Below, piece by piece: positions 50,345 to 63,135 of a stretch of 64,000 bases of DNA (position 1 is the stretch's first letter; each line of letters starts with the position of its first letter). Source of the stretch: Nitrososphaerota archaeon (GTDB taxonomy: Archaea; Thermoproteota; Nitrososphaeria; Nitrososphaerales; Nitrosopumilaceae). Location: positions 7,674-71,673 of the forward strand of contig JAGWHQ010000004.1 in NCBI GenBank assembly GCA_028866655.1. Reading direction: 5' to 3'. A program made the translations under genes and the position numbers. Below the pieces are notes generated by a model that made no database searches, had not been told where the DNA came from, and worked only from the letters and a program-made list of their open reading frames with translations.

Positions 50345-51667
50345 ATGTCTCGTTCTTCACCGCGATCAGCTTACAATGAAGTGCTTTCAAAGCTTAAGAT
50401 ACATAATCAATGGTTTGCAAATTCAATTCCTCTTATTGCAAGTGAGAATGTAACTAGCCCAGCAGTCCGAGAGGCAACAGTCTCAGATTTTGCCAATAGA
50501 TATGCAGAAGGCTGGCCAGGTGAACGGGTCTATGCCGGTTGCATCTACATCGATGAGGTAGAATTCAAGTGCATGGAACTTGCAAAAAAATTATTCAAGG
50601 CAGAGTTTGTAGATGTAAGACCAATTTCAGGTGTTGTTGCTAACCTAGCTATCTATTCCGCATTTTCAAATCCAGGTGATGTTATGCTTGCACCTTCTAT
50701 TCCATCTGGAGGCCACATATCACATGGTAAAAAAGAACATGCTGGTACTGCAGGTCTTGTCCATGGATTAGACATTGAATTTTATCCATTTGATGCTGAA
50801 GAGATGACAATTGATGTAGACAAGACAAAAGACAAAGTCAGAGAACTTGAAAAAGCCGGAAAGATTCCAAAATTAGCAATGTTTGGAGGTTCAGTCTTCT
50901 TGTTTCCACATCCAGTAAAGGAGCTTGCAGATTTTCTAAAAAGTTACAATATGTTTGTCAATTATGACGGTGCACATGTTGCAGGTCTCATTGCAGGTGG
51001 ACAGTTCCAGGATCCATTAAGAGAGGGTGCAGATGCAATGACAATGAGTACACACAAGACTTTGTTTGGTCCTCAGGGTGGAATGATCTGTTCATTTGAA
51101 AAATATGGTGAGAGCATCAAAAAGGCTACATTCCCAGGAATGACTAGCAATCATCATTTGCATCACATGGCAGGAAAGGCAATTGCTTATGCAGAGATGT
51201 TAGAATTTGGTAAAAAATATGCAGCTCAAGTCATAAAGAATGCAAAGGCACTTGCAGAGTCGCTTAACTCATTTGGTTTTTCAGTGCTTGGTGAAAAACG
51301 AGGATTTACAAAATCTCATCAGATAGTTGTAAATGTACTCTCATTTGGTGATGGTGGAACAATTGAGGCAGATCTTGAAAAGGCAAACATTATCGTAAAC
51401 AGACAACTCATACCAGGAGATATCAAGGCTGGACGTAATTATTTCCATCCAGGTGGAATGAGACTTGGTGTTGCAGAACTTACACGACTTGGCATGAAAG
51501 AATCAGACATGAAAGAAGTGGCCAAGTTTATCAAAAAAGTGGTAATAGATAAAAAAGACAAGAAAAAGGTGGCATCAGATGTCAAGAAATTTAGAAAAGA
51601 GTTTCAGAAAGTTCGCTATTGTTTTGAAAGCAAGCATGGCGGTTATGATTACATAAAGATCCGCTAG
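50345..51667 (+). CDS. glyA: Serine hydroxymethyltransferase
   Basis: LIASEN, RYAEG, GGHISHG, YDGAH, STHKT PLP lysine; start probably ATG 50345. Confidence 0.95.
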   Translation: MSRSSPRSAYNEVLSKLKIHNQWFANSIPLIASENVTSPAVREATVSDFANRYAEGWPGERVYAGCIYIDEVEFKCMELAKKLFKAEFVDVRPISGVVANLAIYSAFSNPGDVMLAPSIPSGGHISHGKKEHAGTAGLVHGLDIEFYPFDAEEMTIDVDKTKDKVRELEKAGKIPKLAMFGGSVFLFPHPVKELADFLKSYNMFVNYDGAHVAGLIAGGQFQDPLREGADAMTMSTHKTLFGPQGGMICSFEKYGESIKKATFPGMTSNHHLHHMAGKAIAYAEMLEFGKKYAAQVIKNAKALAESLNSFGFSVLGEKRGFTKSHQIVVNVLSFGDGGTIEADLEKANIIVNRQLIPGDIKAGRNYFHPGGMRLGVAELTRLGMKESDMKEVAKFIKKVVIDKKDKKKVASDVKKFRKEFQKVRYCFESKHGGYDYIKIR

Positions 51668-54600
51668 GCAAAGTCTGTAAGAATAGATTGACTGCTTTCT
51701 TCTTTACCAAAGACTAGCTCTAGTTCATCCAAGAGAGAAAGTACACGTCCTCGAAGATAGGGCGATATTGTATACTTGTTCAACATTCTTCTTGCCAGTT
51801 TGAGATATTTTTGTACAGATGGCCTAGTCATGGTTTGAATCAACCTATTTCCACAGTCAAGACATTTGCCAACAAGAGGAACTCTCCTATAGCTTGCACC
51901 ACATGTAGTACATCGGAAGGATTGGCCAGAATATGACCTGAGATTTCCCATGATATCAGGCAGCAGGTGAGTGGTCATCACCATTGAAACTACTTCACTT
52001 GGGTCAACCGCGTTTATGATGTCTGCAGTTCGTATCTGCATGTCAAGCTTCTCAAGCAATGAACCAAGTGTAGAGTAGGCACTCCTTGACTTTGATGTAG
52101 TCAGTGTAGATGTCATGTGTGTAAAATCATGTCCAAGAAATTGTCTTTCTGTTTCTAGTCTTGATTTTAAAATCTCGACATCTTTGATCTCACTTGCCTT
52201 TTCTCTTGCAAGTGTAGCTTCAAAAAATGAAAGTGGATACGCCTTGACAACTTCAAAGTTGTGAGCTTGTCTTTGTACCTCTTGTGGAATCACAATAGGT
52301 TGAACAAGTAATGGTGCATCCATCAGACCACCTATTCTATCAGACAAAAATAATCTTGAGAAATTAAGCAGACTGTCCATTAGTAACATGATAGAATCTG
52401 CATCACCATCGGCATCACGTCTTTTTGCAGAATGCCATACCGCAGTTCCAAGGCATACTTGGGTATTGGTGTATCCAATTATTCTGCCCACAATTCCAAC
52501 AGATGTATGCGGTGCAAGACCAATGATAAGATGGCCTACAAGATCATCAGTACTTTTCACATTGTAAAATGGCGTGCGTCCAAAAAGTTTTGCAAGCTCT
52601 CTGTCAATGTATTGACATACAAAAACAAGACTGTCTCCACACTCTTTGGGAATTATTACATCTTGGACTCTGAGCTCAACAAGCTGATTAGAATTTTGTA
52701 GTGGATCGCCGTTTGTGTCATGAGTATATCCAAGTTCAACTAGTTTTTCTGGGGTTACTCCAATCCAAGATGGCTTGAAGTGTGAGAGTGGTGCATTAGT
52801 GGTATCAAATCTTATTGTGCCATCCTTGAAGACATTTAGTCCTAGACTCTGCCTTATCAGGCCTTTTTCAAGTGGTTCTGGAACCCTATCCTGGTTTATG
52901 AGCTCTTTTACACCCTTGAATGGCTCTTGGGCCCTAAATCCAGTCCTTTCCTGAGCAGCATACAAGAGATCTTTGAGTGGAAATGAGCGATATGAGTGTC
53001 CTTGTGCCCTAGACTTGCATTTTGGGCAATAATCTGTCTCAATCTCATCTCTGCATTTTTTGCATATGAAAATTGTACTTGTTTTTGTATTACACTTGGG
53101 ACATGCTATGCTAATAGAAGGAGTGTTACATTTTTTGCAGAATCTGTTGTATATGTTACAGTAAAAGTTTGGCTGTTTTGCTGCCTTGAGCAAATCACGG
53201 GATGCTCCACCCTTGTTTCCCACTGGAAATAAAGTATGTACTGGAGGCTTCATTTTTCGTAATGCAGCTTTTTCTGGTCTTCCGACTCGCACTCCAATAG
53301 AGGTTGAAAATTTATTTGGTATTTTTATGCCAGATGATTTTGTTATGATTTGTGGAACAGAAAGATCGTTTTCAAGTTGGATTTGTTTTCTAAATAACAA
53401 ATAGAAAAAGACCTTGGCCTCTATGTCTTTTAGAAGAAGAGAGTCTCCTGCAACTTCATGTGGAACACCCAATTTTTCTAAAATATCTTTTGCATCCATT
53501 GGATAAATAATGAGATCTGAATCAAATTTAGTAGGTTTGAGAATTTTTTCAAATTCTTCAATTGTGATTTGATCCCAATAGTACAGATAATGTGGATGAA
53601 GGCCAATACCAAAATTCAATGATATTCTAAAGGCTTCTTCTAGATCTGGTGTCTTGGATACATAACTGAGAAGTTCAGTGTCATTTGGTTCGTACTTGGT
53701 TACTTTGTCTAGTAGTTCCTGAGTCCAGAACTCTTCTACATATCCAGTCGGTATAAGTTCGGCATTATTTTCTAAAAAATCTCCATAACTTATCAAAATG
53801 TCGCCAAGATGCAAAATCTTTGCAATCTGTGGTTTCAGGGAAATCCCATGTGCAGTGTTCTTTATTTTTACAACATTTCCATTTGTTAATCTAACAATAG
53901 GAGTATCAATCGAGTCCACAAAGGCTACAGTTGAGGCTTTTCCAGGCACATCGAGCTTGATCTGAGTGCCTACGGCTATGGCATGGTCAAGTATCTCTGC
54001 AACTACGGGATGAATGCCAATTGAGGCAAATCCAGTATTGCAGGCACGACCATATCGTAGTCTAAACCCCCCAAGCTTCTTAGGCATGGAAAGCACTGAT
54101 CTGCCTGTAATCACCTCTCTCATTCTATGTGCGGCGGCATCAGCATCACCTGTTTGAATGGCCCCTTTGAGGTCTTTGAGCCAGTCCCAGCCATCAAGCT
54201 TGTACAATTCAATGAGTTTGAGTAGTTTACGGGATCTTCCGATTAGACCGTCATTTAGGACACGAAGGGCACCACCACGAACCCTATTGGTACCAATTCG
54301 CACCATGTTCCTGTGGCTTACAATCTCAACTAGGTCAGTATCTACACCATCAAGTTCCACTGGAAGGTTAGAGATGACATTAATCACATCTTGGTCAGGA
54401 ACATGGAACTGAAAGCTTCCAACCTCTCTTTCGTATACCCTCAACTCTTCTACAAATCGGCCAGTCTCATCATCAAATGAGTTTGCTTGATATTTTGCAA
54501 GTCCAGCTATCTTTCGTACATGATCTGCAATGAGCATGGTAGAGGCCGCTTCTGTTCCTCCTGCTGACCTAATAGGACCTGCAAATGATACAGACAGGTA

Positions 54601-55038
54601 TTCAGTACCATCTGCATTTTTCTTGATTAGAACCTCACTGATGCCTTGAAGGGGGGCAATAGTGACTCCTTCTGTAACTATAGCCAAAGCCACACGTACT
54701 GCAAGATCAAGTTTTTCCTGAAGACCTATGTCAGGTCCAGAGTACTTGCCTTGTGCTATATCTTCTGCAAGCCTTAGAGCAGCTAATTCTTTTGTGGTAT
54801 TTTGAATGAGAGATCGAAGATTATCAGTTACGTCAATGTCGTGCATTTTAGATACACGATCTGCAAGATCAAAAGCGATCTTGGGTTCTACCATCCCAGA
54901 AGAGTCTGCAAGTGTTGCCTTGGCAGATGCGGCTTGTTCAAAAATAGTAAAGACTTCTTCTGATATCTTGGTGTAATATGCAAAATAGTCTTGAGGCATT
55001 GGGACCTCTTTGAGTCTCAATGCTAGGTTTTCAGACAT
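51664..55038 (-). CDS. polC: DNA polymerase D large subunit DP2 (no intein seen)
   Basis: GPIRSAGGT, GGFRLRYGR, RFDTTNAP, KRRDADGDADS, C-terminal Zn fingers. Confidence 0.96.
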   Translation of the reverse strand: MSENLALRLKEVPMPQDYFAYYTKISEEVFTIFEQAASAKATLADSSGMVEPKIAFDLADRVSKMHDIDVTDNLRSLIQNTTKELAALRLAEDIAQGKYSGPDIGLQEKLDLAVRVALAIVTEGVTIAPLQGISEVLIKKNADGTEYLSVSFAGPIRSAGGTEAASTMLIADHVRKIAGLAKYQANSFDDETGRFVEELRVYEREVGSFQFHVPDQDVINVISNLPVELDGVDTDLVEIVSHRNMVRIGTNRVRGGALRVLNDGLIGRSRKLLKLIELYKLDGWDWLKDLKGAIQTGDADAAAHRMREVITGRSVLSMPKKLGGFRLRYGRACNTGFASIGIHPVVAEILDHAIAVGTQIKLDVPGKASTVAFVDSIDTPIVRLTNGNVVKIKNTAHGISLKPQIAKILHLGDILISYGDFLENNAELIPTGYVEEFWTQELLDKVTKYEPNDTELLSYVSKTPDLEEAFRISLNFGIGLHPHYLYYWDQITIEEFEKILKPTKFDSDLIIYPMDAKDILEKLGVPHEVAGDSLLLKDIEAKVFFYLLFRKQIQLENDLSVPQIITKSSGIKIPNKFSTSIGVRVGRPEKAALRKMKPPVHTLFPVGNKGGASRDLLKAAKQPNFYCNIYNRFCKKCNTPSISIACPKCNTKTSTIFICKKCRDEIETDYCPKCKSRAQGHSYRSFPLKDLLYAAQERTGFRAQEPFKGVKELINQDRVPEPLEKGLIRQSLGLNVFKDGTIRFDTTNAPLSHFKPSWIGVTPEKLVELGYTHDTNGDPLQNSNQLVELRVQDVIIPKECGDSLVFVCQYIDRELAKLFGRTPFYNVKSTDDLVGHLIIGLAPHTSVGIVGRIIGYTNTQVCLGTAVWHSAKRRDADGDADSIMLLMDSLLNFSRLFLSDRIGGLMDAPLLVQPIVIPQEVQRQAHNFEVVKAYPLSFFEATLAREKASEIKDVEILKSRLETERQFLGHDFTHMTSTLTTSKSRSAYSTLGSLLEKLDMQIRTADIINAVDPSEVVSMVMTTHLLPDIMGNLRSYSGQSFRCTTCGASYRRVPLVGKCLDCGNRLIQTMTRPSVQKYLKLARRMLNKYTISPYLRGRVLSLLDELELVFGKEESSQSILTDFA

Positions 55039-55039
55039 G

Positions 55040-55789
55040 TTATTTCCTTATAGATTGGATGGCTTTTACGATATCGGAAATTGTTTTGAAACTTCCGCCT
55101 TTCTCAATGAAAGTCCCAATTACGATGGCATCTGCACCGGCTTTTGCTATATCCTCAGCAGTTTCTGGGCTTCGAATGCCTCCACCGACTATAAGAAATC
55201 CTTTGAAAAGTTTCCTTACTGCAGCAACCATCTCAGGTTTCACGTTAGATTTAGCTCCAGAACCTGCTTCCAAGTACACAAATCGCATTCCCATGAATTG
55301 AGCAGACAAAGCATACATGACTGCCAAGCCCGGCTTGTCAAAGGGAATTGTTCTCACCGAACCTACATGCCAGACAGTTGTTCCCTCACCAATAATGATA
55401 TAGGCTGTAGGAAGGGGTTCAAGACCAAATCTTAGGACGCTTGGTGCTCCTAGGGCTTGTGCCTGTGAGATAAAGTATGGATTATCCGAGTTCAAAAGTG
55501 AGCTGAATAGTATTGCATCAGCGCCAGGAACCACGCCTGTAACATTTCCAGGAAAGAGAATTACAGGTATCTTGACTGCTTTTTTGATGCTAGATACAGT
55601 CTCAGTCATAGTAAGTTGATCAACGGCCGATGAGCCGCCAACCAAAATTGCAGAGGCGCCATTTTTTTCCGCTTCTTTTGCTAATGTTGAAGCAGAGCGT
55701 CCTGCAGAATTTTCAGAATCTATTAACACAAAGAGAAGTGTTCCCTTTTTCTTTTTTGTAGCGTGAAGATAATTCTCTGTCTCTTGCAT
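55040..55789 (-). CDS. Geranylgeranylglyceryl phosphate synthase (PcrB family)
   Basis: ILVGGS, LFPGN, YLEAGSG, VGGGIR, IVIGT. Confidence 0.93.
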   Translation of the reverse strand: MQETENYLHATKKKKGTLLFVLIDSENSAGRSASTLAKEAEKNGASAILVGGSSAVDQLTMTETVSSIKKAVKIPVILFPGNVTGVVPGADAILFSSLLNSDNPYFISQAQALGAPSVLRFGLEPLPTAYIIIGEGTTVWHVGSVRTIPFDKPGLAVMYALSAQFMGMRFVYLEAGSGAKSNVKPEMVAAVRKLFKGFLIVGGGIRSPETAEDIAKAGADAIVIGTFIEKGGSFKTISDIVKAIQSIRK

Positions 55790-55824
55790 ATGGATGGTTG
55801 AATACCTATTGATTAAAAGTTTAA

Positions 55825-56217
55825 TTGAATATAGTTATACAGATTTGTATAGCTATGAGCAATCCCCCTGATGATAATTTTAGTAATATTATAAGACAAA
55901 TTATAAAAAAATCATCATTTACTGAAAGACAAATTGCAATTATTTTAAAACGTAAGAACCTTGTAGACTCGCAGTTTACTATCAGTAAAGGGGCATTTTA
56001 TCGACAAGTAACCCAGTCTAAAGACAAGTTGACTGCACTATGCTATTCATGGATCCTGCTCAGGAGCCTAGGCGTGCTTAGTAGTGATGATATTGATGTG
56101 ATAAATCGCCTTTCTGAGCAGGTTTCTGTGATACAAAGTAGTGATGTTTTTCCAGAACGTGAGGAACAAATCATGTCTGTGATACAGGAAGTACTAAAAC
56201 GGACCTGTAACCTATAA
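55825..56217 (+). CDS. Hypothetical protein with predicted HTH
   Basis: FTERQIAII...ISKGAFYRQVTQSKDKL resembles a sigma-region-4/LuxR-type HTH; alternative ATG at MSNPP. Confidence 0.65.
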   Translation: MNIVIQICIAMSNPPDDNFSNIIRQIIKKSSFTERQIAIILKRKNLVDSQFTISKGAFYRQVTQSKDKLTALCYSWILLRSLGVLSSDDIDVINRLSEQVSVIQSSDVFPEREEQIMSVIQEVLKRTCNL

Positions 56218-56260
56218 TTTGGCTTCAAAAATAGGCACGTTTTGGCAAATGGTTGTGATA

Positions 56261-56335
56261 AGATGTGATTAGATGTGTTTGATATTGATGTGTAAGATGT
56301 GAAATAATTTTACTCAAACATGATAAATCACATCA
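56261..56335. repeat. Array of (A/T)GATGTG heptamers
   Basis: Direct copies at 56261, 56271, 56286, 56295; inverted copy CACATCA at 56329-56335. Confidence 0.6.
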
Positions 56336-56349
56336 CTTGACGTTACATC

Positions 56350-56910
56350 GTGATGTTAGTAGACATACCAGACGTAGGAGTCATTTTAAGCGTATTTGCA
56401 TCATTTATTGGCGGACTAGTAGCTATTACAGTGTACAACAAAGTAAGGCCACGACTAAAATCAGATGCCGAAAATGCAAAAATTCTAACAGAACGCTTAC
56501 AGTATTATGAAAATTTGTTAATTGATATGAAAATTCGTTTAGATTCAGTAGAAATGGCACAAGAAACCCAGGAAATTCCTCAAGCACAAATTCCAAGGCC
56601 AAAGGAGCAAAAAGTACAGCAAGAACCTCCAGTAATTGTCAAAGAGGAGAAGCCAAAGGAGAAAATCCAGAATGTGCAGTTTGGAAATGTCACGGATCAT
56701 GTTCTACGTTTAATCACAGAGAAGTCAATGACATCACGTGACATACAAGTCACATTAGGAAGAACTAGAGAACACACATCACGTATGTTAAAGAAGTTGT
56801 TTGAGGAGGGTTTGGTCGAAAGAGACATGACAACAAAGCCATTTTCCTATAAAATAACTGACAAGGGTCTTACAAGGATAGGGGTTATCAAGATGGCTCC
56901 AGCCCAATAA
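56350..56910 (+). CDS. Membrane-anchored wHTH (MarR-like) protein
   Basis: N-terminal TM, coiled coil, C-terminal wHTH MTSRDIQVTLGRTREHTSRMLKKLFEEGLVER...YKITDKG. Confidence 0.8.
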   Translation: MMLVDIPDVGVILSVFASFIGGLVAITVYNKVRPRLKSDAENAKILTERLQYYENLLIDMKIRLDSVEMAQETQEIPQAQIPRPKEQKVQQEPPVIVKEEKPKEKIQNVQFGNVTDHVLRLITEKSMTSRDIQVTLGRTREHTSRMLKKLFEEGLVERDMTTKPFSYKITDKGLTRIGVIKMAPAQ

Positions 56911-57084
56911 CTTTTAGGATATCAATAGTTTTCAGATCAAGAAATTAGGACCAACCCCGGTTATTTTTTAATTAATTTAATCTCCAGTCTATTCAATTTT
57001 CTATCAGGTCATCAAAAATCATTATATTTTAATAATCTTAATTAATTGTAAATTCTTAAATTATTGTTCTTATAATGTAATAAC

Positions 57085-57237
57085 ATGTCTAATGAGCAAT
57101 TAATCAAAATTACCACTGCAGGAACAATCTCAATCCCTAAAGACTTTAGAAAATTCTTGGAACTTCAGAAAGGAGACTATGTCAAGATCACAATAGATGG
57201 GGATCACCTAGTGGTCAAAAAGGTAGTAATCTCCTAA
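57085..57237 (+). CDS. AbrB/MazE/SpoVT-family DNA-binding protein, 50 aa (missed by ORF track)
   Basis: MSNEQLIKITTAGTISIPKDFRKFLELQKGDYVKITIDGDHLVVKKVVIS. Confidence 0.85.
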   Translation: MSNEQLIKITTAGTISIPKDFRKFLELQKGDYVKITIDGDHLVVKKVVIS

Positions 57238-57632
57238 GGCCCATTCTTTTCTCTCTGGGCTATCTTTAGTATCTGGTAGGCCCATTCTTTTCCTTGTTTT
57301 TCCCTTGCTACTCTACCCTTTACTGCAAATCTGGATAGATATGTAGAGATCACGCTCAGCTTGATGGGTTCATCATACTCATCTTCGTATTTTTCCAATA
57401 TCATTGAGGAGGTAAATTTGCCTATGGGGAAGTTCTTGTCTATTATATTCCATATCTTGGCTCCTATGGAATCCAATTGGGCTCCTCCCCCCTCTGGTTC
57501 TTCTATATTCATAAGGTTCATCAATTCAAATATCTTTAGCATCTTTTCACGAGTAACATTTCCCTCTAGGCTAAAGTTGTACTTGGCTCCATCCGAGTCT
57601 TCCAAGTCTATTCTGATTCTTTTTCGGGCCAT
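57234..57632 (-). CDS. Origin-adjacent hypothetical protein with C-terminal wHTH
   Basis: FTSSMILEKYEDEYDEPIKLSVISTYLSRFAVKGRVAREKQGKEWAYQI wHTH pattern. Confidence 0.7.
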   Translation of the reverse strand: MARKRIRIDLEDSDGAKYNFSLEGNVTREKMLKIFELMNLMNIEEPEGGGAQLDSIGAKIWNIIDKNFPIGKFTSSMILEKYEDEYDEPIKLSVISTYLSRFAVKGRVAREKQGKEWAYQILKIAQREKNGP

Positions 57633-57645
57633 TGGGATCGATCTG

Positions 57646-57926
57646 GTTAACTGTTAACACTTGAACAGATCATAGAAGATTTGTTAACTAGTGGGTTTGT
57701 TAACATTCACTGCCTAGCCCACGCCTAGCCATTTTTGATATCTTAACAGACCTTATGAGGCTTATATTCAAACAAGCCCATATTTCATGCCTAGAGTGGA
57801 AACAATGGGGTATTCTTTAGGATGTTAACAATGTTAAGAGCCATCTTCACGCCTGGACTGGAAATAAAGGGGTCATTTTGGGCTTTTCAGGACCTTATGT
57901 TAACAGAAAGTTCACTAATTGTTAAT
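57646..57926. repeat. Cluster of GTTAAC palindromes in the origin region
   Basis: Exact copies at 57646, 57653, 57683, 57699, 57824, 57899; near-matches at 57742, 57833, 57921. Confidence 0.7.
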
Positions 57927-58070
57927 ATCATTTCAGGAAGACTCACACACCTATACTTCCACTCTAGCTTTATTTAAAAAATTTTTTTAATGAAAATAAA
58001 AATAAAAATAATTAATGATATACTAAATTTGGTTTAGTTATTCTATTCTAATCTAATTAATTGAGTAGAG
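57791..58070. other. Probable replication origin oriC: three ORB boxes plus AT-rich unwinding element
   Basis: CTAGAGTGGAAACAATGGGGT (57791-57811), CTGGACTGGAAATAAAGGGGT (57853-57873), inverted CTAGAGTGGAAGTATAGG (57967-57950); AT-rich 57969-58070; directly upstream of cdc6. Confidence 0.85.
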
Positions 58071-58077
58071 TCCTTAT

Positions 58078-59319
58078 GTGGATAGAGAAGAAACGATGGT
58101 GTGTGGGTTCATGACAAAAGATCCAATTGATAAATTATTAGATGATGCACAAAGTGGCAAGTCATTATTTAAAAATCGTGAAGTCCTACATTTTACATTT
58201 ATTCCTGATGTAATTTTACACCGCGAGGACGAACAAAAAAAGGTCACCCAATCACTATTACCATTATTAAAAAAATCACGTCCTTCCAATCTACTAGTTT
58301 ACGGAAAACCAGGTACAGGAAAGACATTGGTAGTAAAGAAAGTTCTTGGTAAGATACAAGAACGAGTAAAGGATAACTCTTTTCCAATTCAATTGCTTTA
58401 TGCTAACGCAAAAGAAGAGACTACTCTCTATGGATTACTAGTAAAATTAGGCAGACAATTGGGTCTTACATCCCAAAAGGAACTACCTTCTACAGGGCTT
58501 TCAATTAGTGAAGTATTCAATCGTATTATTGCAGTAATTGAGAAGAATGAGCTAAACACAGTGTTCGTAATTGATGAGATTGATTATCTCGTAGAACTTG
58601 TCTCTAAATCAGGTAAAGATGTATTTTATTCACTAACCAGAGCCAATGAGAGGCTAAAAAAGGGCACATTAACCCTGATAGGAATTTCCAACGATCTCAC
58701 ATTCAAAGAACGCCTAGATCCTAGGGTCCTAAGCAGTCTAAGTGAGGAAGAGGTAATCTTTACCAATTATACCGTCGAACAGATCAACGAAATTCTTGAT
58801 GAGCGTATCAAGGTCGCCTTTGTACCAAATACTGTAGAGCAGGCAGCCCTAAACCTATGCTCTGCCATGTCTGGCCAAGAACATGGGGATGCAAGAAGGG
58901 CAATTGACCTTTTACGTGTTGCAGGTGAGATTGCCGAGCGTGAACAATCTGATACAGTAAAGGAAGACCACATACGAAGAGCCTCTCTTAAGATGGAGGA
59001 AGATAAGGAAACCACTGCATTGAATTCATACCCATTACATGAAAAATTACTCATACTTGCAGTAATGAAGGCAAGCGGAAACACAACTGGTGAGATATAC
59101 CAATCATACAAAAATCTCTGTAAAATTACAAGACAAAAAGAACTAACCCAGCGTAGAATTACACAGATGCTAAGTGAGATAGAAATGACCGGATTAATCA
59201 CAGGAAAAATTGTTCATCAAGGAATGCATGGAAGAACAAAAAAATTCAATCTCACACTAAATGCTGATACTGTAAAAAAAGCATTCAAAGAAGATCTAAC
59301 CTTAGAAGATCTCTTGTAA
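58078..59319 (+). CDS. cdc6: Orc1/Cdc6 replication initiator
   Basis: YGKPGTGKT, VIDEID, GDARRAIDLLR, C-terminal wHTH GRTK; alternative start ATG 58111. Confidence 0.97.
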   Translation: MDREETMVCGFMTKDPIDKLLDDAQSGKSLFKNREVLHFTFIPDVILHREDEQKKVTQSLLPLLKKSRPSNLLVYGKPGTGKTLVVKKVLGKIQERVKDNSFPIQLLYANAKEETTLYGLLVKLGRQLGLTSQKELPSTGLSISEVFNRIIAVIEKNELNTVFVIDEIDYLVELVSKSGKDVFYSLTRANERLKKGTLTLIGISNDLTFKERLDPRVLSSLSEEEVIFTNYTVEQINEILDERIKVAFVPNTVEQAALNLCSAMSGQEHGDARRAIDLLRVAGEIAEREQSDTVKEDHIRRASLKMEEDKETTALNSYPLHEKLLILAVMKASGNTTGEIYQSYKNLCKITRQKELTQRRITQMLSEIEMTGLITGKIVHQGMHGRTKKFNLTLNADTVKKAFKEDLTLEDLL

Positions 59320-59322
59320 ATT

Positions 59323-60756
59323 TTAAAAAGAATTTTCTGTAAAGTCTTTTGTAAAAACCTTCATGGTGGCAAGGTTTACAATAATGGCAATTCCTGGCGT
59401 AGGACTGATTCCAACACTTGTTTGAAATGGGGTCTGGCTTTGCCATGCGCCAGAGTTTACGATCAATGTTCCCTTGTACATGTCAAGCTCAACAACATGG
59501 ATGTGGCCAGAATGTAAAATGTCTGGAACTTCAGATATTACCATCATGTCTTCCAACTCTGGCGCAATCGGAGTTCTCTTGCCATATATCGGACTTAGAT
59601 GCCTAGTTTTTAGCAAAACCCGCATGGCTTTTGCCGGTTGTGCATAGCTCAATCCTGGTGTGCTGCCAACAACATCATCAAGGCTTTGGCCATGGAACAT
59701 CAATATCTTGACGCCATTTAGCTCAAGCAGGGATGGGTTTCCCACCATGAAAAAATTCTCTCTATTCCAGAGGTGCATATTGTGCTTTTCTGGAATTGCT
59801 GGCTGGGGAAGGGCTCTTCTTCCTGGGTCATGGTTTCCTGGAATGATGAAAACCTTGATGTGTTTTGGGATCTTGTCTAAAAGCTCGGCAGCCTTTGCCA
59901 TCTGCTGGTCCACATCTAATAACAAGAGTTCCTTGTCTTGGTTTGGAAAGATACCTATTCCATCAATAATGTCTCCACCCACTAGGACAAATCTGACCTT
60001 TCTTGCTATTGGATCAGGGCTTGAAAGCCATGAAACAAACTCTGTAAACTCTTTTTCCATAAAGAATTTGCTTCCCACATGCAAATCCGAAATGAAGACA
60101 GCATAAGTTTCAGTCTTTGAACGATTTGCTATGTGTTCAGGTATATCTGGAACAAGGATTTCTTTAACAAAAAATCCACCATTCTTCCCACTTGCAATTG
60201 ATACCATAACAAACTGATCAATTTGCAGAGAATTTGCGGTTTCCTGTATCTCTTTATTGAAAATTAACAATTCTATTGAGCCTGAGGGATCGTCTATGAC
60301 CAACTTTGTGACATCCCTGTCTATTCTTCTATCCATCAACAGACCTGCGATGTATATCTCATCATCTAGCTTACCATTTGTCACATTTGAAATGGGAGTT
60401 AGTTTCTTTGACTGTGAACGCTGCATCATGATTTTAAGCAATTTTGCGTATCTGTCTTTGAATAAGGCATGAAAACCCTCAATTCCTTCTGCAGATGTAA
60501 CCTTTTTCGTAGGATCAAACAAAATCACATGATTATTTTCAATACTGTCGTCTATTTCTGATTCTACAAACATTTTGAGATCACTTTGATTAATCAAAAA
60601 CATATTTTGTTTAGCTTTTTCTCGAACTACTTGTTTGATTATGTTCTGGAGTTCTTTAACATCAATTTTTTCTAATATTTTAAACGCATCAGGATGAATC
60701 TGAAATCCTTTACTTAGTGCATAAGTTATGGCAGAGGAAACTTCTTCTTTCAACAA
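59323..60756 (-). CDS. polB: DNA polymerase D small subunit DP1 (proofreading exonuclease)
   Basis: SDLHVGS, GDIIDG, PGNHD, FHGQSLD, HSGHIH, NSGAWQ. Confidence 0.95.
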   Translation of the reverse strand: MLKEEVSSAITYALSKGFQIHPDAFKILEKIDVKELQNIIKQVVREKAKQNMFLINQSDLKMFVESEIDDSIENNHVILFDPTKKVTSAEGIEGFHALFKDRYAKLLKIMMQRSQSKKLTPISNVTNGKLDDEIYIAGLLMDRRIDRDVTKLVIDDPSGSIELLIFNKEIQETANSLQIDQFVMVSIASGKNGGFFVKEILVPDIPEHIANRSKTETYAVFISDLHVGSKFFMEKEFTEFVSWLSSPDPIARKVRFVLVGGDIIDGIGIFPNQDKELLLLDVDQQMAKAAELLDKIPKHIKVFIIPGNHDPGRRALPQPAIPEKHNMHLWNRENFFMVGNPSLLELNGVKILMFHGQSLDDVVGSTPGLSYAQPAKAMRVLLKTRHLSPIYGKRTPIAPELEDMMVISEVPDILHSGHIHVVELDMYKGTLIVNSGAWQSQTPFQTSVGISPTPGIAIIVNLATMKVFTKDFTENSF

Positions 60757-60831: not shown

Positions 60832-61374
60832 TTGTTCAGTAAACCGAGAGTTCTAGTATTTCTTATTTTCATTATGATTTTTTCTTTATCTTATTTAATC
60901 GGAACTCAAAGCAAATTATCTAATGACGAATCACAAACATTTCTCAAAGAATTTCAAAAAGTAGTTCAAGGTATTGATGCTATAGGAATTTTTGAACACA
61001 ATGCGTCAGTTGCACTACCCATGTTTATCCCAGGTGCAGGACTAGCTTGGGGTACATTTGCAGCTTGGTCAACAGGGGTTGCGTTTGAGGCTCTAGTAAC
61101 AACAACCCCAACACTTGCAAAAGTTCCTCCATTGGCATTGCTTTACTTGTCTCCCTTTGGCATAATGGAGCTTACAGCCTATTCAATTGGAATGTCAAGA
61201 AGCCTTTTGCTTATAGTTGTAATAGTAAGAAAAAAATCTCTAAGAACTGAACTACGTCATACTGCTATAGAAATAGGAATTGTCTTGGCTCTTCTGCTTG
61301 CTGGAGGATTCATTGAATATTATATGATTCAACAATTTGGATCAAATGTAATTCATCCAAAAACTAGTCTGTAA
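60832..61374 (+). CDS. SpoIIM-family membrane protein
   Basis: IFEHN, PFGIMEL, LLLAGGFIEY. Confidence 0.8.
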   Translation: MFSKPRVLVFLIFIMIFSLSYLIGTQSKLSNDESQTFLKEFQKVVQGIDAIGIFEHNASVALPMFIPGAGLAWGTFAAWSTGVAFEALVTTTPTLAKVPPLALLYLSPFGIMELTAYSIGMSRSLLLIVVIVRKKSLRTELRHTAIEIGIVLALLLAGGFIEYYMIQQFGSNVIHPKTSL

Positions 61375-61443: not shown

Positions 61444-63135
61444 TTGGATAATCTAATGAAATACGTATTTCTGTTTCTAATGATAATTGCAGGACTTGTT
61501 GCTACTACAATGTATTTACCTAATGCCTATTCTGATTTCTCATCTAATGGAAAATACTTGATTGATGCTTCAGGTTATCTTTCAGGAAACAAAACCATTT
61601 TTGATTCAAATATCGCTTTACAGATTACAGCAGGAGCTAACAATGGTACCAGCATGCAAGCCACACTTGATAATGGCCTTGTTACTATAGCAAATACACA
61701 ATATCTTAATTCTGGATTATGGCAAGTCGCAATCTTACGAGATAACAAGTATTTTGTAATACAAGGCAATGCGCAGGATGAAAACGGAAACACAGTTCAT
61801 CTCAATTTGTTTGGAAGAATAATTGGTAGCAACCAAGATGGTTCTGTTTTTACCATATCAGGAAAGATAACTGGATCTGAAACTATGAAAGCAAGTTACA
61901 GCGCTAAAGTATTATCTGCAGGTACTGTAACCACAAAACCGATTACATCAACTACCACACCGACTCAGCCCCCATCATCTAAAATAGTGAACATAAGCAT
62001 TCTACAAGGTGCATCTAATATCAACAACCAAGTCCACTATTCACCATCAAATGTACAGGTAGCTCTTGGTACCACCATAGTATGGACCAACAATGATTTG
62101 GTTCCACATAGAATAATGAGTGGTGTGGCATCTGCAATAACCACTAATCAATCATCTACTACACTTATTTCTGATGGCAAGATTGACAGCGGTGTAATAG
62201 CCCCAGGCCAGTCATTCCAGTATACAATAACTAGTTTTGATACTACTCAATCACTAGATCCTAGGGTTGCAGCACGTTACAACATTCCACAAGATGAAAC
62301 AGTAGGTGACATTACCTTCTTTGATCCCACTTACCAATTCATGGTGGGAATAATTGCACCACTCTCACAATCATCAACTATGCAAACACAAACAGCTCAA
62401 ATGACCATACTTAACGGCGCATCAAATTCTAGTAACATACAATTCCTTGCACCATCATCACTCCAAATTACACCAGGTACAGTTGTAGTATGGACCAACA
62501 ATGATTTGGTTCCACATAGCATAATGAGTGGCCAGTTAATATCAACAACAGAAAGTGCTGGAGGAAAAGGTGCTGCTGGAAAAACAGTTAGTCCTCACTT
62601 TATTTCAGATGGAAATATTAACAGTGGTCCCATTGCTCCAGGCCAAAGTTATCAAACTACTTTTAGCAGAACTGGTTCTACACAAATCTTTGATCCAACA
62701 TATACATGGATAAATGGAATTATCATCTCATCACCTGCAAGCACAACTCAAATTGCTCCAGTCAAAATTAGTATAAACCCAGGCTCATCATCAGCAAAGG
62801 GAAGTGCAACTCAACAGACGTATAATCAATACAATACATACTATACACCAGATACTATACAGATAGTTCCTGGCACTCCTATTATTTGGACTAATAATGA
62901 TTCTATAGCCCATACCATTTACAGTGGTGTTAGTACACAAAAAAATACCAATCCATTTACTCCTGATGGAAAAATAGTAAGTGGTACCATAGCTCCAGGA
63001 CAAACATTCACGGTTATTGTAAATGATACTGGAATTGTTAGATTCTATGATCCACAGTACACTTGGATGAATGGCGTGATAATTTCAATGCCACCAACTT
63101 CGTCATATGTAATTGGCAACACCCCACCTCAATAA
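61444..63135 (+). CDS. Exported protein with three cupredoxin-like repeats lacking the type-1 copper Cys/His
   Basis: Three WTNND..H..SG...SG.IAPGQ.F repeats each ending DP.Y..(M/I).G; no Cys seen in the translation. Confidence 0.8.
   Translation: MDNLMKYVFLFLMIIAGLVATTMYLPNAYSDFSSNGKYLIDASGYLSGNKTIFDSNIALQITAGANNGTSMQATLDNGLVTIANTQYLNSGLWQVAILRDNKYFVIQGNAQDENGNTVHLNLFGRIIGSNQDGSVFTISGKITGSETMKASYSAKVLSAGTVTTKPITSTTTPTQPPSSKIVNISILQGASNINNQVHYSPSNVQVALGTTIVWTNNDLVPHRIMSGVASAITTNQSSTTLISDGKIDSGVIAPGQSFQYTITSFDTTQSLDPRVAARYNIPQDETVGDITFFDPTYQFMVGIIAPLSQSSTMQTQTAQMTILNGASNSSNIQFLAPSSLQITPGTVVVWTNNDLVPHSIMSGQLISTTESAGGKGAAGKTVSPHFISDGNINSGPIAPGQSYQTTFSRTGSTQIFDPTYTWINGIIISSPASTTQIAPVKISINPGSSSAKGSATQQTYNQYNTYYTPDTIQIVPGTPIIWTNNDSIAHTIYSGVSTQKNTNPFTPDGKIVSGTIAPGQTFTVIVNDTGIVRFYDPQYTWMNGVIISMPPTSSYVIGNTPPQ

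Follow-up and report, generated by a model that had tools for sequence, protein, structure and literature searches.

In Sulfolobus, the protein UBP binds ucm, an origin motif that is not an origin recognition box (ORB) and is essential for origin activity (PMC12141716). The Cdt1-like protein WhiP is a winged helix protein encoded beside Sulfolobus oriC3 (PMC3607249, PMC5333045). Regulators of the BlaI/MecI/CopY type recognize operators with TACA/TGTA half-sites (PMC7253601). One-component regulators such as ToxR and CadC combine a cytoplasmic DNA-binding domain with a single transmembrane (TM) segment. We describe here a locus that resembles the UBP/ucm, BlaI/CopY, WhiP, and ToxR-type systems in part and qualifies as a member of none. 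It lies in a stretch of 64,000 nucleotides (64 kb) from a Nitrososphaerota archaeon (GenBank assembly GCA_028866655.1, contig JAGWHQ010000004.1), which is called the window below. Four small open reading frames (ORF1 to ORF4) are located there between the gene for geranylgeranylglyceryl phosphate synthase (GGGPS, PcrB) and the oriC-cdc6 region, at the places where a first-pass annotation of the DNA had put them. In public sources, all four are "hypothetical" or carry merely generic labels.

The cell cycle of Nitrososphaeria is ordered, and no obvious counterparts of eukaryotic cell-cycle regulators are found in archaea of their superphylum (PMC7617429, PMC5120986). According to PMC4010727, which cites Pelve et al. 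2013, marker frequency mapped a single origin in Nitrosopumilus maritimus. In the searchable literature, we found no description of the proteins and TTAAC repeats introduced here; Pelve et al. 2013 may mention origin repeats. Judged by its best protein matches, which bear Nitrosotalea names, the source of the window is an ammonia-oxidising archaeon of the Nitrosotalea type. The locus appears to be a class-wide conserved, origin-flanking cassette of Nitrososphaeria with ORF4, ORF2, and ORF1 as its core, and from their sequences and gene order these three are strong candidates for origin or cell-cycle control.

Conservation of the cassette at the origin

The 445 bp at 57633-58077, which form the common control region of ORF4 and cdc6 and include the cdc6 promoter, fit an archaeal Orc1/Cdc6-dependent oriC. 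Two direct ORB-like repeats of 28 nt, ORB1 (57784-57811) and ORB2 (57846-57873), are 82% identical to each other, and an inverted copy, ORB3, is found at about 57941-57968. Direct and inverted ORBs alike bear the core (T)CCAGTGGAAA and a G-string, and all of these ORBs are kept across genera and distant lineages. Beside the ORBs lies an AT-rich putative unwinding element (about 57969-58040), and the Orc1/Cdc6 initiator gene adjoins (58078-59319, plus strand; Cdc6_lid 7e-26, Cdc6_C 1e-20). The cumulative GC skew reaches its maximum near 56.5-57 kb. The ORB repeats, the AT-rich stretch, the adjoining cdc6, and the skew peak all agree with the position that had been given to oriC-cdc6.

Gene order was compared in 80 species-level genomes found via Cdc6 (70-98% identical), of which 67 loci had sufficient upstream flank. 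In all 67 Nitrosopumilaceae loci, spanning Nitrosotalea, Nitrosarchaeum, Nitrosotenuis, and Nitrosopumilus, ORF1, ORF2, and ORF4 lie beside cdc6 in identical order, orientation, and spacing. A distant set consisted of nine divergent ORF4 members (identity 24-52% in a common alignment, 27-55% for the cluster representatives). In eight of these nine lineages (L083 and L086 to L092), ORF4 is divergent from cdc6 across 400-730 bp that bear ORBs, and this origin linkage persists at an identity as low as 24-29%. The ORF2 orthologue is convergent with ORF4 in six of the eight lineages and usually overlaps its 3' end. ORF2 orthologues of the same architecture were found with a hidden Markov model (HMM) in L083, L086, L087, L088, L090, L091, and L092. 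An ORF1 homologue follows in five lineages (L083, L087, L088, L090, and L091; HMM E 7.5e-5 to 3.7e-33).

The whole block is found in L091 in the order SpoIIM, PolD small subunit, Cdc6, oriC, ORF4, ORF2, ORF1, PcrB, PolD large subunit, with only ORF3 missing. In L086 it is rearranged and split into ORF4-oriC-cdc6 and PcrB-ORF1-ORF2, leaving ORF2 6 kb from oriC. The genes flanking the block differ from lineage to lineage, so the block itself is the conserved unit. The families of ORF1, ORF2, and ORF4 are under purifying selection and have been co-inherited with cdc6 and oriC over very deep divergence. The first-pass annotation had proposed a cluster of four genes at the origin and had named loss of its conservation next to oriC as the outcome that would speak against it. 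This outcome did not occur in the 67 close loci or in eight of the nine distant lineages. Three of the four genes are kept by oriC as a core, but ORF3 is confined to Nitrosopumilaceae.

TTAAC(A) repeats at the origin

The hexamer GTTAAC has nine sites in the window, and six of them fall within 57646-57904. This count was never reached in composition-matched simulations of the intergenic region (0/1000). Each of the 67 Nitrosopumilaceae origins carries 2-6 GTTAAC sites, which account for the majority or almost the whole of the copies in the respective locus (up to 21 kb). Several positions are fixed, namely a pair by the ORF4 ATG, two copies of TTTGTTAAC spaced 16 bp, a pair in the interval from ORB1 to ORB2, and a group in that from ORB2 to ORB3. 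The pairs between ORBs are placed as ucm is among the ORBs of Sulfolobus oriC1.

What is conserved is the half-site TTAAC(A), which is present in the window at 57646, 57653, 57683, 57699, 57742, 57824, 57833, 57899, and 57921, together with GTTCAC-type variants. TTAAC/GTTAA counts amount to 12-19 in the origin regions of the window, L083, L086, L088, L091, and L092. About 2-3 are expected by composition-matched simulation, in which the observed counts were reached in 0/1000 runs. The L090 origin bears TTGTGAAC/TTCAC repeats instead (TTCAC/GTGAA, 0/1000). The GTTAAC cluster could be regarded as HpaI-type methylation sites; methylation is unlikely to explain it fully, since the half-site TTAAC(A) is what is kept, in the forms ATTAAC, CTTAAC, or GTTAAT elsewhere and, in L090, TTCAC. 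Two repeat arrays had been noticed in the first reading, GTTAAC and GATGTG. Both are real clusters and the former is deeply conserved, but GATGTG is not conserved as such. Each core gene has its own conserved upstream motif: TTAAC(A) for ORF4, a GTGAT-type motif for ORF2, and TATACA-N4-TGTATA for ORF1.

Outside oriC, in about 63.5 kb, GTTAAC occurs at three sites (2046, 34196, and 37865), all of them coding, compared with about 12 (standard deviation 3.5) in the shuffled whole window. GTTAAC looks depleted off the origin, a pattern compatible with avoidance of a hexamer that has its own reader or is a restriction-modification target. A GATC-bounded palindrome, GATCTGGTTAACTGTTAACACTTGAACAGATC (57638-57671), abuts the ORF4 start, and its GATC ends are kept across genera. 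Where ORF4 is detached from cdc6 (the L085-type loci described below), a conserved AAAGATCTTT palindrome is found before the start in its place.

ORF4, a small, predicted winged helix-turn-helix protein

ORF4 (57234-57632, minus strand) encodes 132 amino acids, with an N-terminal β-hairpin/helix and a predicted winged helix-turn-helix (wHTH) domain of BlaI/CopY-like type. In the AlphaFold2 (AF2) model, helix-β-helix-helix-wing elements extend over residues 50-121 with a predicted local distance difference test score (pLDDT) of 70-90. The N-terminal β-hairpin and helix (1-42) are modeled at a pLDDT of about 57 and are followed by a disordered linker. The recognition helix carries an invariant STYL-x-R. 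Profile matches are weak: Penicillinase_R (PF03965) gives 16.9 bits (E = 0.008), below the cut-off of 22.6, and CopY_TcrY gives 18.3 against a cut-off of 121.95. The family profile of ORF4 finds BlaI in the PDB at E = 0.0098, and the meaningful ones among the 50 Foldseek matches listed are all generic wHTH proteins, at E of at least 3e-3. The wHTH domain that the first reading had seen in ORF4 is supported by the AF2 fold and the BlaI match, but weakly, with the Pfam score below cut-off. The family is restricted in lineage and small, since a search of 1.8 billion cluster representatives with ORF4 gave just 216 matching clusters; the source names of the clusters are Nitrososphaeria, Nitrososphaerales, or Conexivisphaera-like.

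BlaI, MecI, and CopY are the best, though weak, matches of the ORF4 wHTH, and a palindrome that might be an operator of their type, TATACA-N4-TGTATA, is conserved in the cassette. However, in BlaI and CopY the wHTH is N-terminal and a helical domain is C-terminal, whereas the wHTH of ORF4 is C-terminal and preceded by an unrelated β-hairpin/helix. ORF4 has no CXC metal site (there is no Cys motif) and no BlaR1/MecR1-type partner. The spacer of the cassette palindrome is N4, in contrast to N2 in operators of the BlaI family.

In organization, the locus resembles UBP and ucm (PMC12141716), where, as here, a non-initiator DNA-binding protein (in this locus a candidate) is associated with a short non-ORB motif located among ORBs. 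UBP is β-rich and saddle-shaped, is encoded away from the origin, and has hundreds of sites, whereas ORF4 and ORF2 have wHTH domains and their genes adjoin the origin. The ucm motif is present in a single copy, in contrast to the many TTAAC(A) copies here, whose binding is putative. Neither sequence nor fold similarity to UBP was detected: profile searches of the PDB with ORF4 and ORF1, in a copy of the PDB later than the UBP paper, and the 50 listed Foldseek matches of ORF4 did not contain UBP. WhiP resembles ORF4 as a winged helix protein encoded by an origin. We detected no homology of ORF4 to WhiP or Cdt1, neither of which is among its top 50 Foldseek matches. WhiP is also larger than the 132-residue ORF4 with its single wHTH. 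ORF4 need not be an initiator because a canonical Orc1/Cdc6 and ORBs are present at this locus.

ORF2, a membrane-anchored wHTH protein

ORF2 (56353-56910, plus strand) starts at ATG 56353 and encodes 185 amino acids with a predicted TM helix, a coiled coil, a linker, and a MarR-like wHTH. The TM helix (residues 8-26) has a mean Kyte-Doolittle value of 2.29. Since acidic residues precede it and K/R residues follow, the topology is predicted to be N-out/C-in. Only about seven residues (1-7) would then be outside the membrane, so ORF2 has no sensor domain. The coiled coil (about 40-68) was read from hydrophobic residues at 45/49/52/56/59/63/66, in a 3-4 heptad pattern, and the charged linker, rich in P/Q/E/K, differs in length and sequence between genera. 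The wHTH at residues 113-173 matches PF13463 (HTH_27) at 26.9 bits, above the cut-off of 22.2. Its nearest sequences in the PDB are of MarR type, with AdcR at 8.9e-6 in the search with the family profile. An invariant REH motif is found in its recognition helix. Hydropathy, heptads, and the Pfam match agree with the earlier description of ORF2 as a TM, coiled-coil, and wHTH protein.

Like ToxR and CadC, ORF2 combines a cytoplasmic DNA-binding domain with a single TM helix. Unlike them, it lacks an extracytoplasmic sensor, its MarR-like wHTH is C-terminal after a coiled coil and a long linker, and it is archaeal and origin-linked. Archaeal wHTH regulators of the MarR/TrmB type are close in sequence, as the match above the HTH_27 cut-off and the proximity of AdcR and other MarR proteins indicate. 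However, the flanking dimerisation helices of the soluble MarR homodimer are not present in ORF2, which ends about ten residues after the wing; the TM helix, coiled coil, and linker are found in their place, and a ligand pocket is not evident.

The region upstream of ORF2 (56248..56352, plus strand) contains GTGAT/GATGTG repeats at 56255-56301, with an inverted copy at 56329-56334. A TATA-like element, ATGATAAATCAC, is located at 56320-56331, about 28 nt 5' of the ORF2 ATG, and is conserved across genera. Five of the 38 GATGTG sites in 64 kb are within 56262-56334. Outside close relatives, GATGTG falls to 0-2 copies, and only GTGAT/ATCAC motifs and ATGATAAATCAC are kept across genera; GTGATAT/ATATCAC-type motifs are also found 5' of ORF2-like genes in distant lineages. 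GATGTG was therefore rejected as a conserved element, and, on its distribution among genomes, the array is a strain-level elaboration of the conserved GTGAT/ATCAC motifs.

ORF1 and its promoter palindrome

ORF1 (55855-56217, plus strand) encodes 120 amino acids. Its start is placed at ATG 55855 because homologues are nearly all of 120 amino acids and stop codons lie upstream in other genera. The starts of ORF1 and ORF2 had been set elsewhere and are corrected to 55855 and 56353, whereas the coordinates of ORF3 and ORF4 stand. There are 3078 homologues of ORF1; the best 120 of these 3078 are nearly all of this length, and none of them has a functional name. The N-terminal half of the protein is basic and the C-terminal half is acidic. 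No match was obtained in Pfam, NCBIfam, or the PDB, including searches with the family profile. The AF2 model, made from an alignment of 44 sequences, is all-helical at low confidence (pLDDT 56), and Foldseek returned no fold match for it. The helix-turn-helix (HTH) that had been seen in ORF1 could not be confirmed by these profile and fold searches. The stretch FTERQ..IL / ISKGAFYRQV presumably recalls a sigma-r4/LuxR HTH, a likeness that we do not claim.

The divergent promoter of GGGPS and ORF1 spans 65 bp. Its part at 55816..55854 (plus strand) includes a TATA-like element, AAAGTTTAATT (55816-55826), and a palindrome of 16 bp, TATACAGATTTGTATA (TATACA-N4-TGTATA; 55836-55851), with 3 nt between its end and the ORF1 ATG. 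Both elements are invariant across Nitrosopumilaceae, and the exact palindrome occurs once in the window. In the form TATAC(A/G)-N4-(T/C)GTATA, it precedes the ORF1-like gene in each distant lineage that has one. It is directly 5' of the gene in L083, L086, L088, L090, and L091, and an imperfect copy is present in L087. In L083, the change from A/T to G/C is symmetric. The palindrome, an element absent from the first-pass annotation, may act in DNA, as an operator, or in RNA, as a 5' hairpin.

A small Elf1-type zinc-ribbon gene directly follows the ORF1-like gene in L083 (L083:11579-11818) and L087 (L087:10857-11090). It stands directly before the PolD large subunit gene in L083 and before PcrB, which itself precedes that gene, in L087.

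ORF3 and the convergent gene ends

ORF3 (57085-57237, plus strand) encodes 50 amino acids that form a stand-alone SpoVT/AbrB domain. Its AbrB-like identity, as first described, is borne out by PF04014 (35.1 bits, cut-off 24.7) and TIGR01439 (38.9 bits, cut-off 28.3). ORF3 is present in 66 of the 67 Nitrosopumilaceae loci and absent from every distant locus examined. By this distribution, it is an insertion between ORF2 and ORF4 that is specific to Nitrosopumilaceae and outside the core. ORF2 lies 174 bp upstream, and ORF4 is convergent. Stand-alone AbrB/SpoVT proteins include MazE-type antitoxins and small archaeal AbrB-fold DNA binders, and ORF3 likewise has a single swapped-hairpin AbrB domain. 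In contrast to the antitoxins, it has no toxin partner, and its gene keeps a single syntenic position and is restricted to Nitrosopumilaceae. No MazF, PIN, or Doc-like ORF adjoins it, and a MazE-type antitoxin role was rejected.

In the window, ORF3 overlaps the end of ORF4 by 4 nt. In loci without ORF3 (L083, L088, L090, L091, and L092), the convergent 3' ends of ORF4 and ORF2 overlap by 11-77 nt, and transcriptional interference or antisense coupling is possible there. An exact direct repeat of 15 nt, AGGCCCATTCTTTTC, is located at 57237-57251 and 57278-57292, at the 3' end of ORF4 and the end of ORF3, and is read in two ORF4 frames. The nearby segment 57240-57260 is complementary at 81% to ORB1 (57789-57809); this could be an ORB-like relic or chance.

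Neighbouring genes and transcripts

The block is bordered on one side by the genes for the PolD large subunit (51664-55038, minus strand) and GGGPS (55040-55789, minus strand; PcrB, 6e-52). On the other side, cdc6 is followed by the genes for the PolD small subunit (59323-60756, minus strand) and a SpoIIM-like membrane protein (60832-61374, plus strand; PF01944, 6e-9). In Nitrosopumilaceae and L091, the SpoIIM-family gene neighbours that of the PolD small subunit; in L092, its immediate neighbour is cdc6. Judged by gene order, the SpoIIM-family gene is a further conserved member of the origin block. At 61444-63135, a protein of 563 amino acids is encoded, whose translation has a hydrophobic N-terminal segment and three internal repeats, each terminating in a motif of the type DP(T/Q)Y-x-(F/W)-(M/I)-x-G-(I/V)-I. 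Known RNA families were not found in the intergenic regions.

Contigs of a soil metatranscriptome, at low depth, cover GGGPS (from 55053) and then continuously 55831-57272, that is, ORF1 to ORF3 with both gaps. ORF4 is covered (57427-57624) in another metatranscriptome run. The segment 55701-55830 and the oriC region lie outside this coverage. These contigs are suggestive of expression of ORF1 to ORF4, and they hint at read-through transcription from ORF1 to ORF3 with a 5' end near the palindrome.

Proposed function and alternative explanations

Four overlapping readings of the cassette are considered. As the most likely of them, though a little short of an even prospect, we tentatively propose that its proteins act at the oriC-cdc6 region as local regulators or as accessory binding factors. 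ORF4 dimers would bind the TTAAC(A) repeats between ORF4 and cdc6 and possibly also the palindrome of TACA/TGTA type in the promoter between ORF1 and GGGPS, since the wHTH of ORF4 is nearest to BlaI/MecI/CopY, readers of TACA/TGTA half-sites. The candidate DNA for a dimer is TGTTAACA or TATACA-N4-TGTATA. Bound ORF4 would set the expression of cdc6 and of its own gene and/or modulate the loading of Orc1/Cdc6 at the ORBs, and would be an accessory origin factor in the sense of UBP/ucm. ORF2, fixed in the membrane and probably dimeric, may act on the same local sites by its cytoplasmic wHTH, which is carried on a flexible linker of 45-70 residues. ORF1 might be a regulated partner or co-factor.

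Several points weigh against this proposal. The assignment of motifs to proteins is putative and made by proximity alone. The ORF4 model, based on a shallow alignment, has a moderate overall pLDDT of 66, and ORF1 is without a demonstrated DNA-binding fold. Repeat enrichment is not significant in L087 and L089. Covariation of motif and recognition helix was considered as a discriminator and rejected: the two lineages with TTCAC alter both helices, in ORF2 (REH-T to V) and in ORF4 (V94 to T), so it does not tell which protein reads the repeats. Finally, in the ninth distant lineage, of Nitrososphaeraceae type (L085 and the 30 metagenome loci L093-L122), ORF4 has no cdc6, PolD, or PcrB/GGGPS within the flank (up to 9 kb per side), and no TTAAC array is found upstream of it.

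In every L085-type locus with enough downstream sequence, ORF4 is followed by a membrane wHTH protein. This partner (about 187 amino acids; L085:7654-8217) has an N-terminal wHTH, a coiled coil, and a C-terminal TM helix, the reverse of the ORF2 topology, and an acidic, GDF-rich tail with an invariant DTGDFGGFDxGGFGDF. Orthology with ORF2 is not detectable; because the hhalign probability is 32%, the partner is treated as analogous. A pair of ORF4 and a membrane wHTH can thus exist off the origin, since these loci lack cdc6 in the flank. The L085-type ORF4 pair may be a paralogue.

The possible, though not probable, first alternative is that the proteins are ordinary local transcription factors, which autoregulate and control cdc6, PolD, and GGGPS, for example with the cell cycle or growth rate, and play no role in origin firing. 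The TTAAC repeats would then be operators of a divergent promoter that incidentally contains oriC. A regulator gene divergent from its target is the commonest arrangement among prokaryotic transcription factors, and each core gene has its own motif close to a TATA-like box and start codon. Some sources label the ORF4 family "predicted transcriptional regulator" or "BlaI/MecI/CopY family", and the Nitrososphaeraceae-type pair, away from cdc6, is consistent with this explanation as well. However, the 9-19 TTAAC half-sites spread over about 300 bp among the ORBs far exceed what an operator needs, and the array is missing just where ORF4 is detached from cdc6. The synteny with oriC also persists although the surrounding genes are shuffled.

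Tethering or segregation of the origin, which the first-pass annotation had suggested, is an unlikely second alternative. Membrane-bound ORF2 dimers would bind the origin repeats and hold or sequester oriC at the envelope, once initiation has taken place or for partitioning, with ORF4 and ORF1 as adaptors. The architecture of ORF2, devoid of a sensor domain, suits an anchor more than a signal receptor, and the invariance of the REH helix implies that its DNA target is conserved. A membrane-anchored wHTH protein accompanies ORF4 in every case, even if it is the non-orthologous one of reverse topology, and under this explanation the constant pairing would be a conserved two-protein bridge between DNA and membrane. 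The absence of a ParA/SegA-type ATPase nearby also counts in favor of this explanation. In line with the first reading, which had seen none in the window, a search for the deviant Walker A motif (KGGxGK[ST]) in ORFs of at least 100 amino acids gave 0 matches in 64 kb, and the genes called in the distant loci likewise showed none. With no such motif found in these ORFs, the locus does not qualify as a ParABS/SegAB system, in which the ATPase is encoded beside its DNA-binding partner. However, no segregation motor or partner was identified, the ORF2 promoter bears a different motif (GTGAT), and nothing links ORF2 to origin binding. ORF2 of L086 is 6 kb from oriC, and the Nitrososphaeraceae-type pair is not near cdc6. 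Nothing in the analysis shows membrane tethering or segregation of oriC. The more specific idea that ORF2 is an origin-membrane tether on TTAAC(A), alone or with ORF4, which sequesters or positions oriC at the envelope and, in view of the adjoining GGGPS gene, couples initiation or segregation to membrane growth, is less likely again.

The least likely explanation is a regulator of membrane status, in which ORF2 and ORF1 sense the membrane via the TM or juxtamembrane region and control GGGPS, with incidental origin proximity: PcrB adjoins ORF1 in the window, L086, L088, and L091, adjoins ORF2 in L092, and is one small Elf1-like gene from ORF1 in L087, PcrB-ORF1-ORF2 stayed joined in L086 when parted from ORF4-oriC-cdc6, and the invariant palindrome lies within the short GGGPS/ORF1 promoter, but PcrB is not in the L083 block, the corresponding L090 gene (256 amino acids) has no PcrB match, ORF2 is convergent with ORF4 and unlinked to PcrB in most lineages, lipid sensing by ORF2 has no precedent, and the sole basis for the coupling to lipid synthesis proposed earlier is that ORF1 adjoins the GGGPS gene.

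Implications for Nitrososphaeria

Nitrososphaeria include globally abundant ammonia oxidisers. The locus yields a small set of candidates: three oriC-linked protein families, TTAAC(A) as a second class of origin repeat, and an invariant palindromic operator candidate. Should the repeats prove to be sites of ORF4 or ORF2, the cassette would join UBP/ucm as just the second accessory origin-binding system described in archaea and the first encoded at the origin; it would possibly also be the first archaeal link between origin and membrane. If ORF2 acts as a tether, it would be the first origin-membrane tether protein described in archaea.

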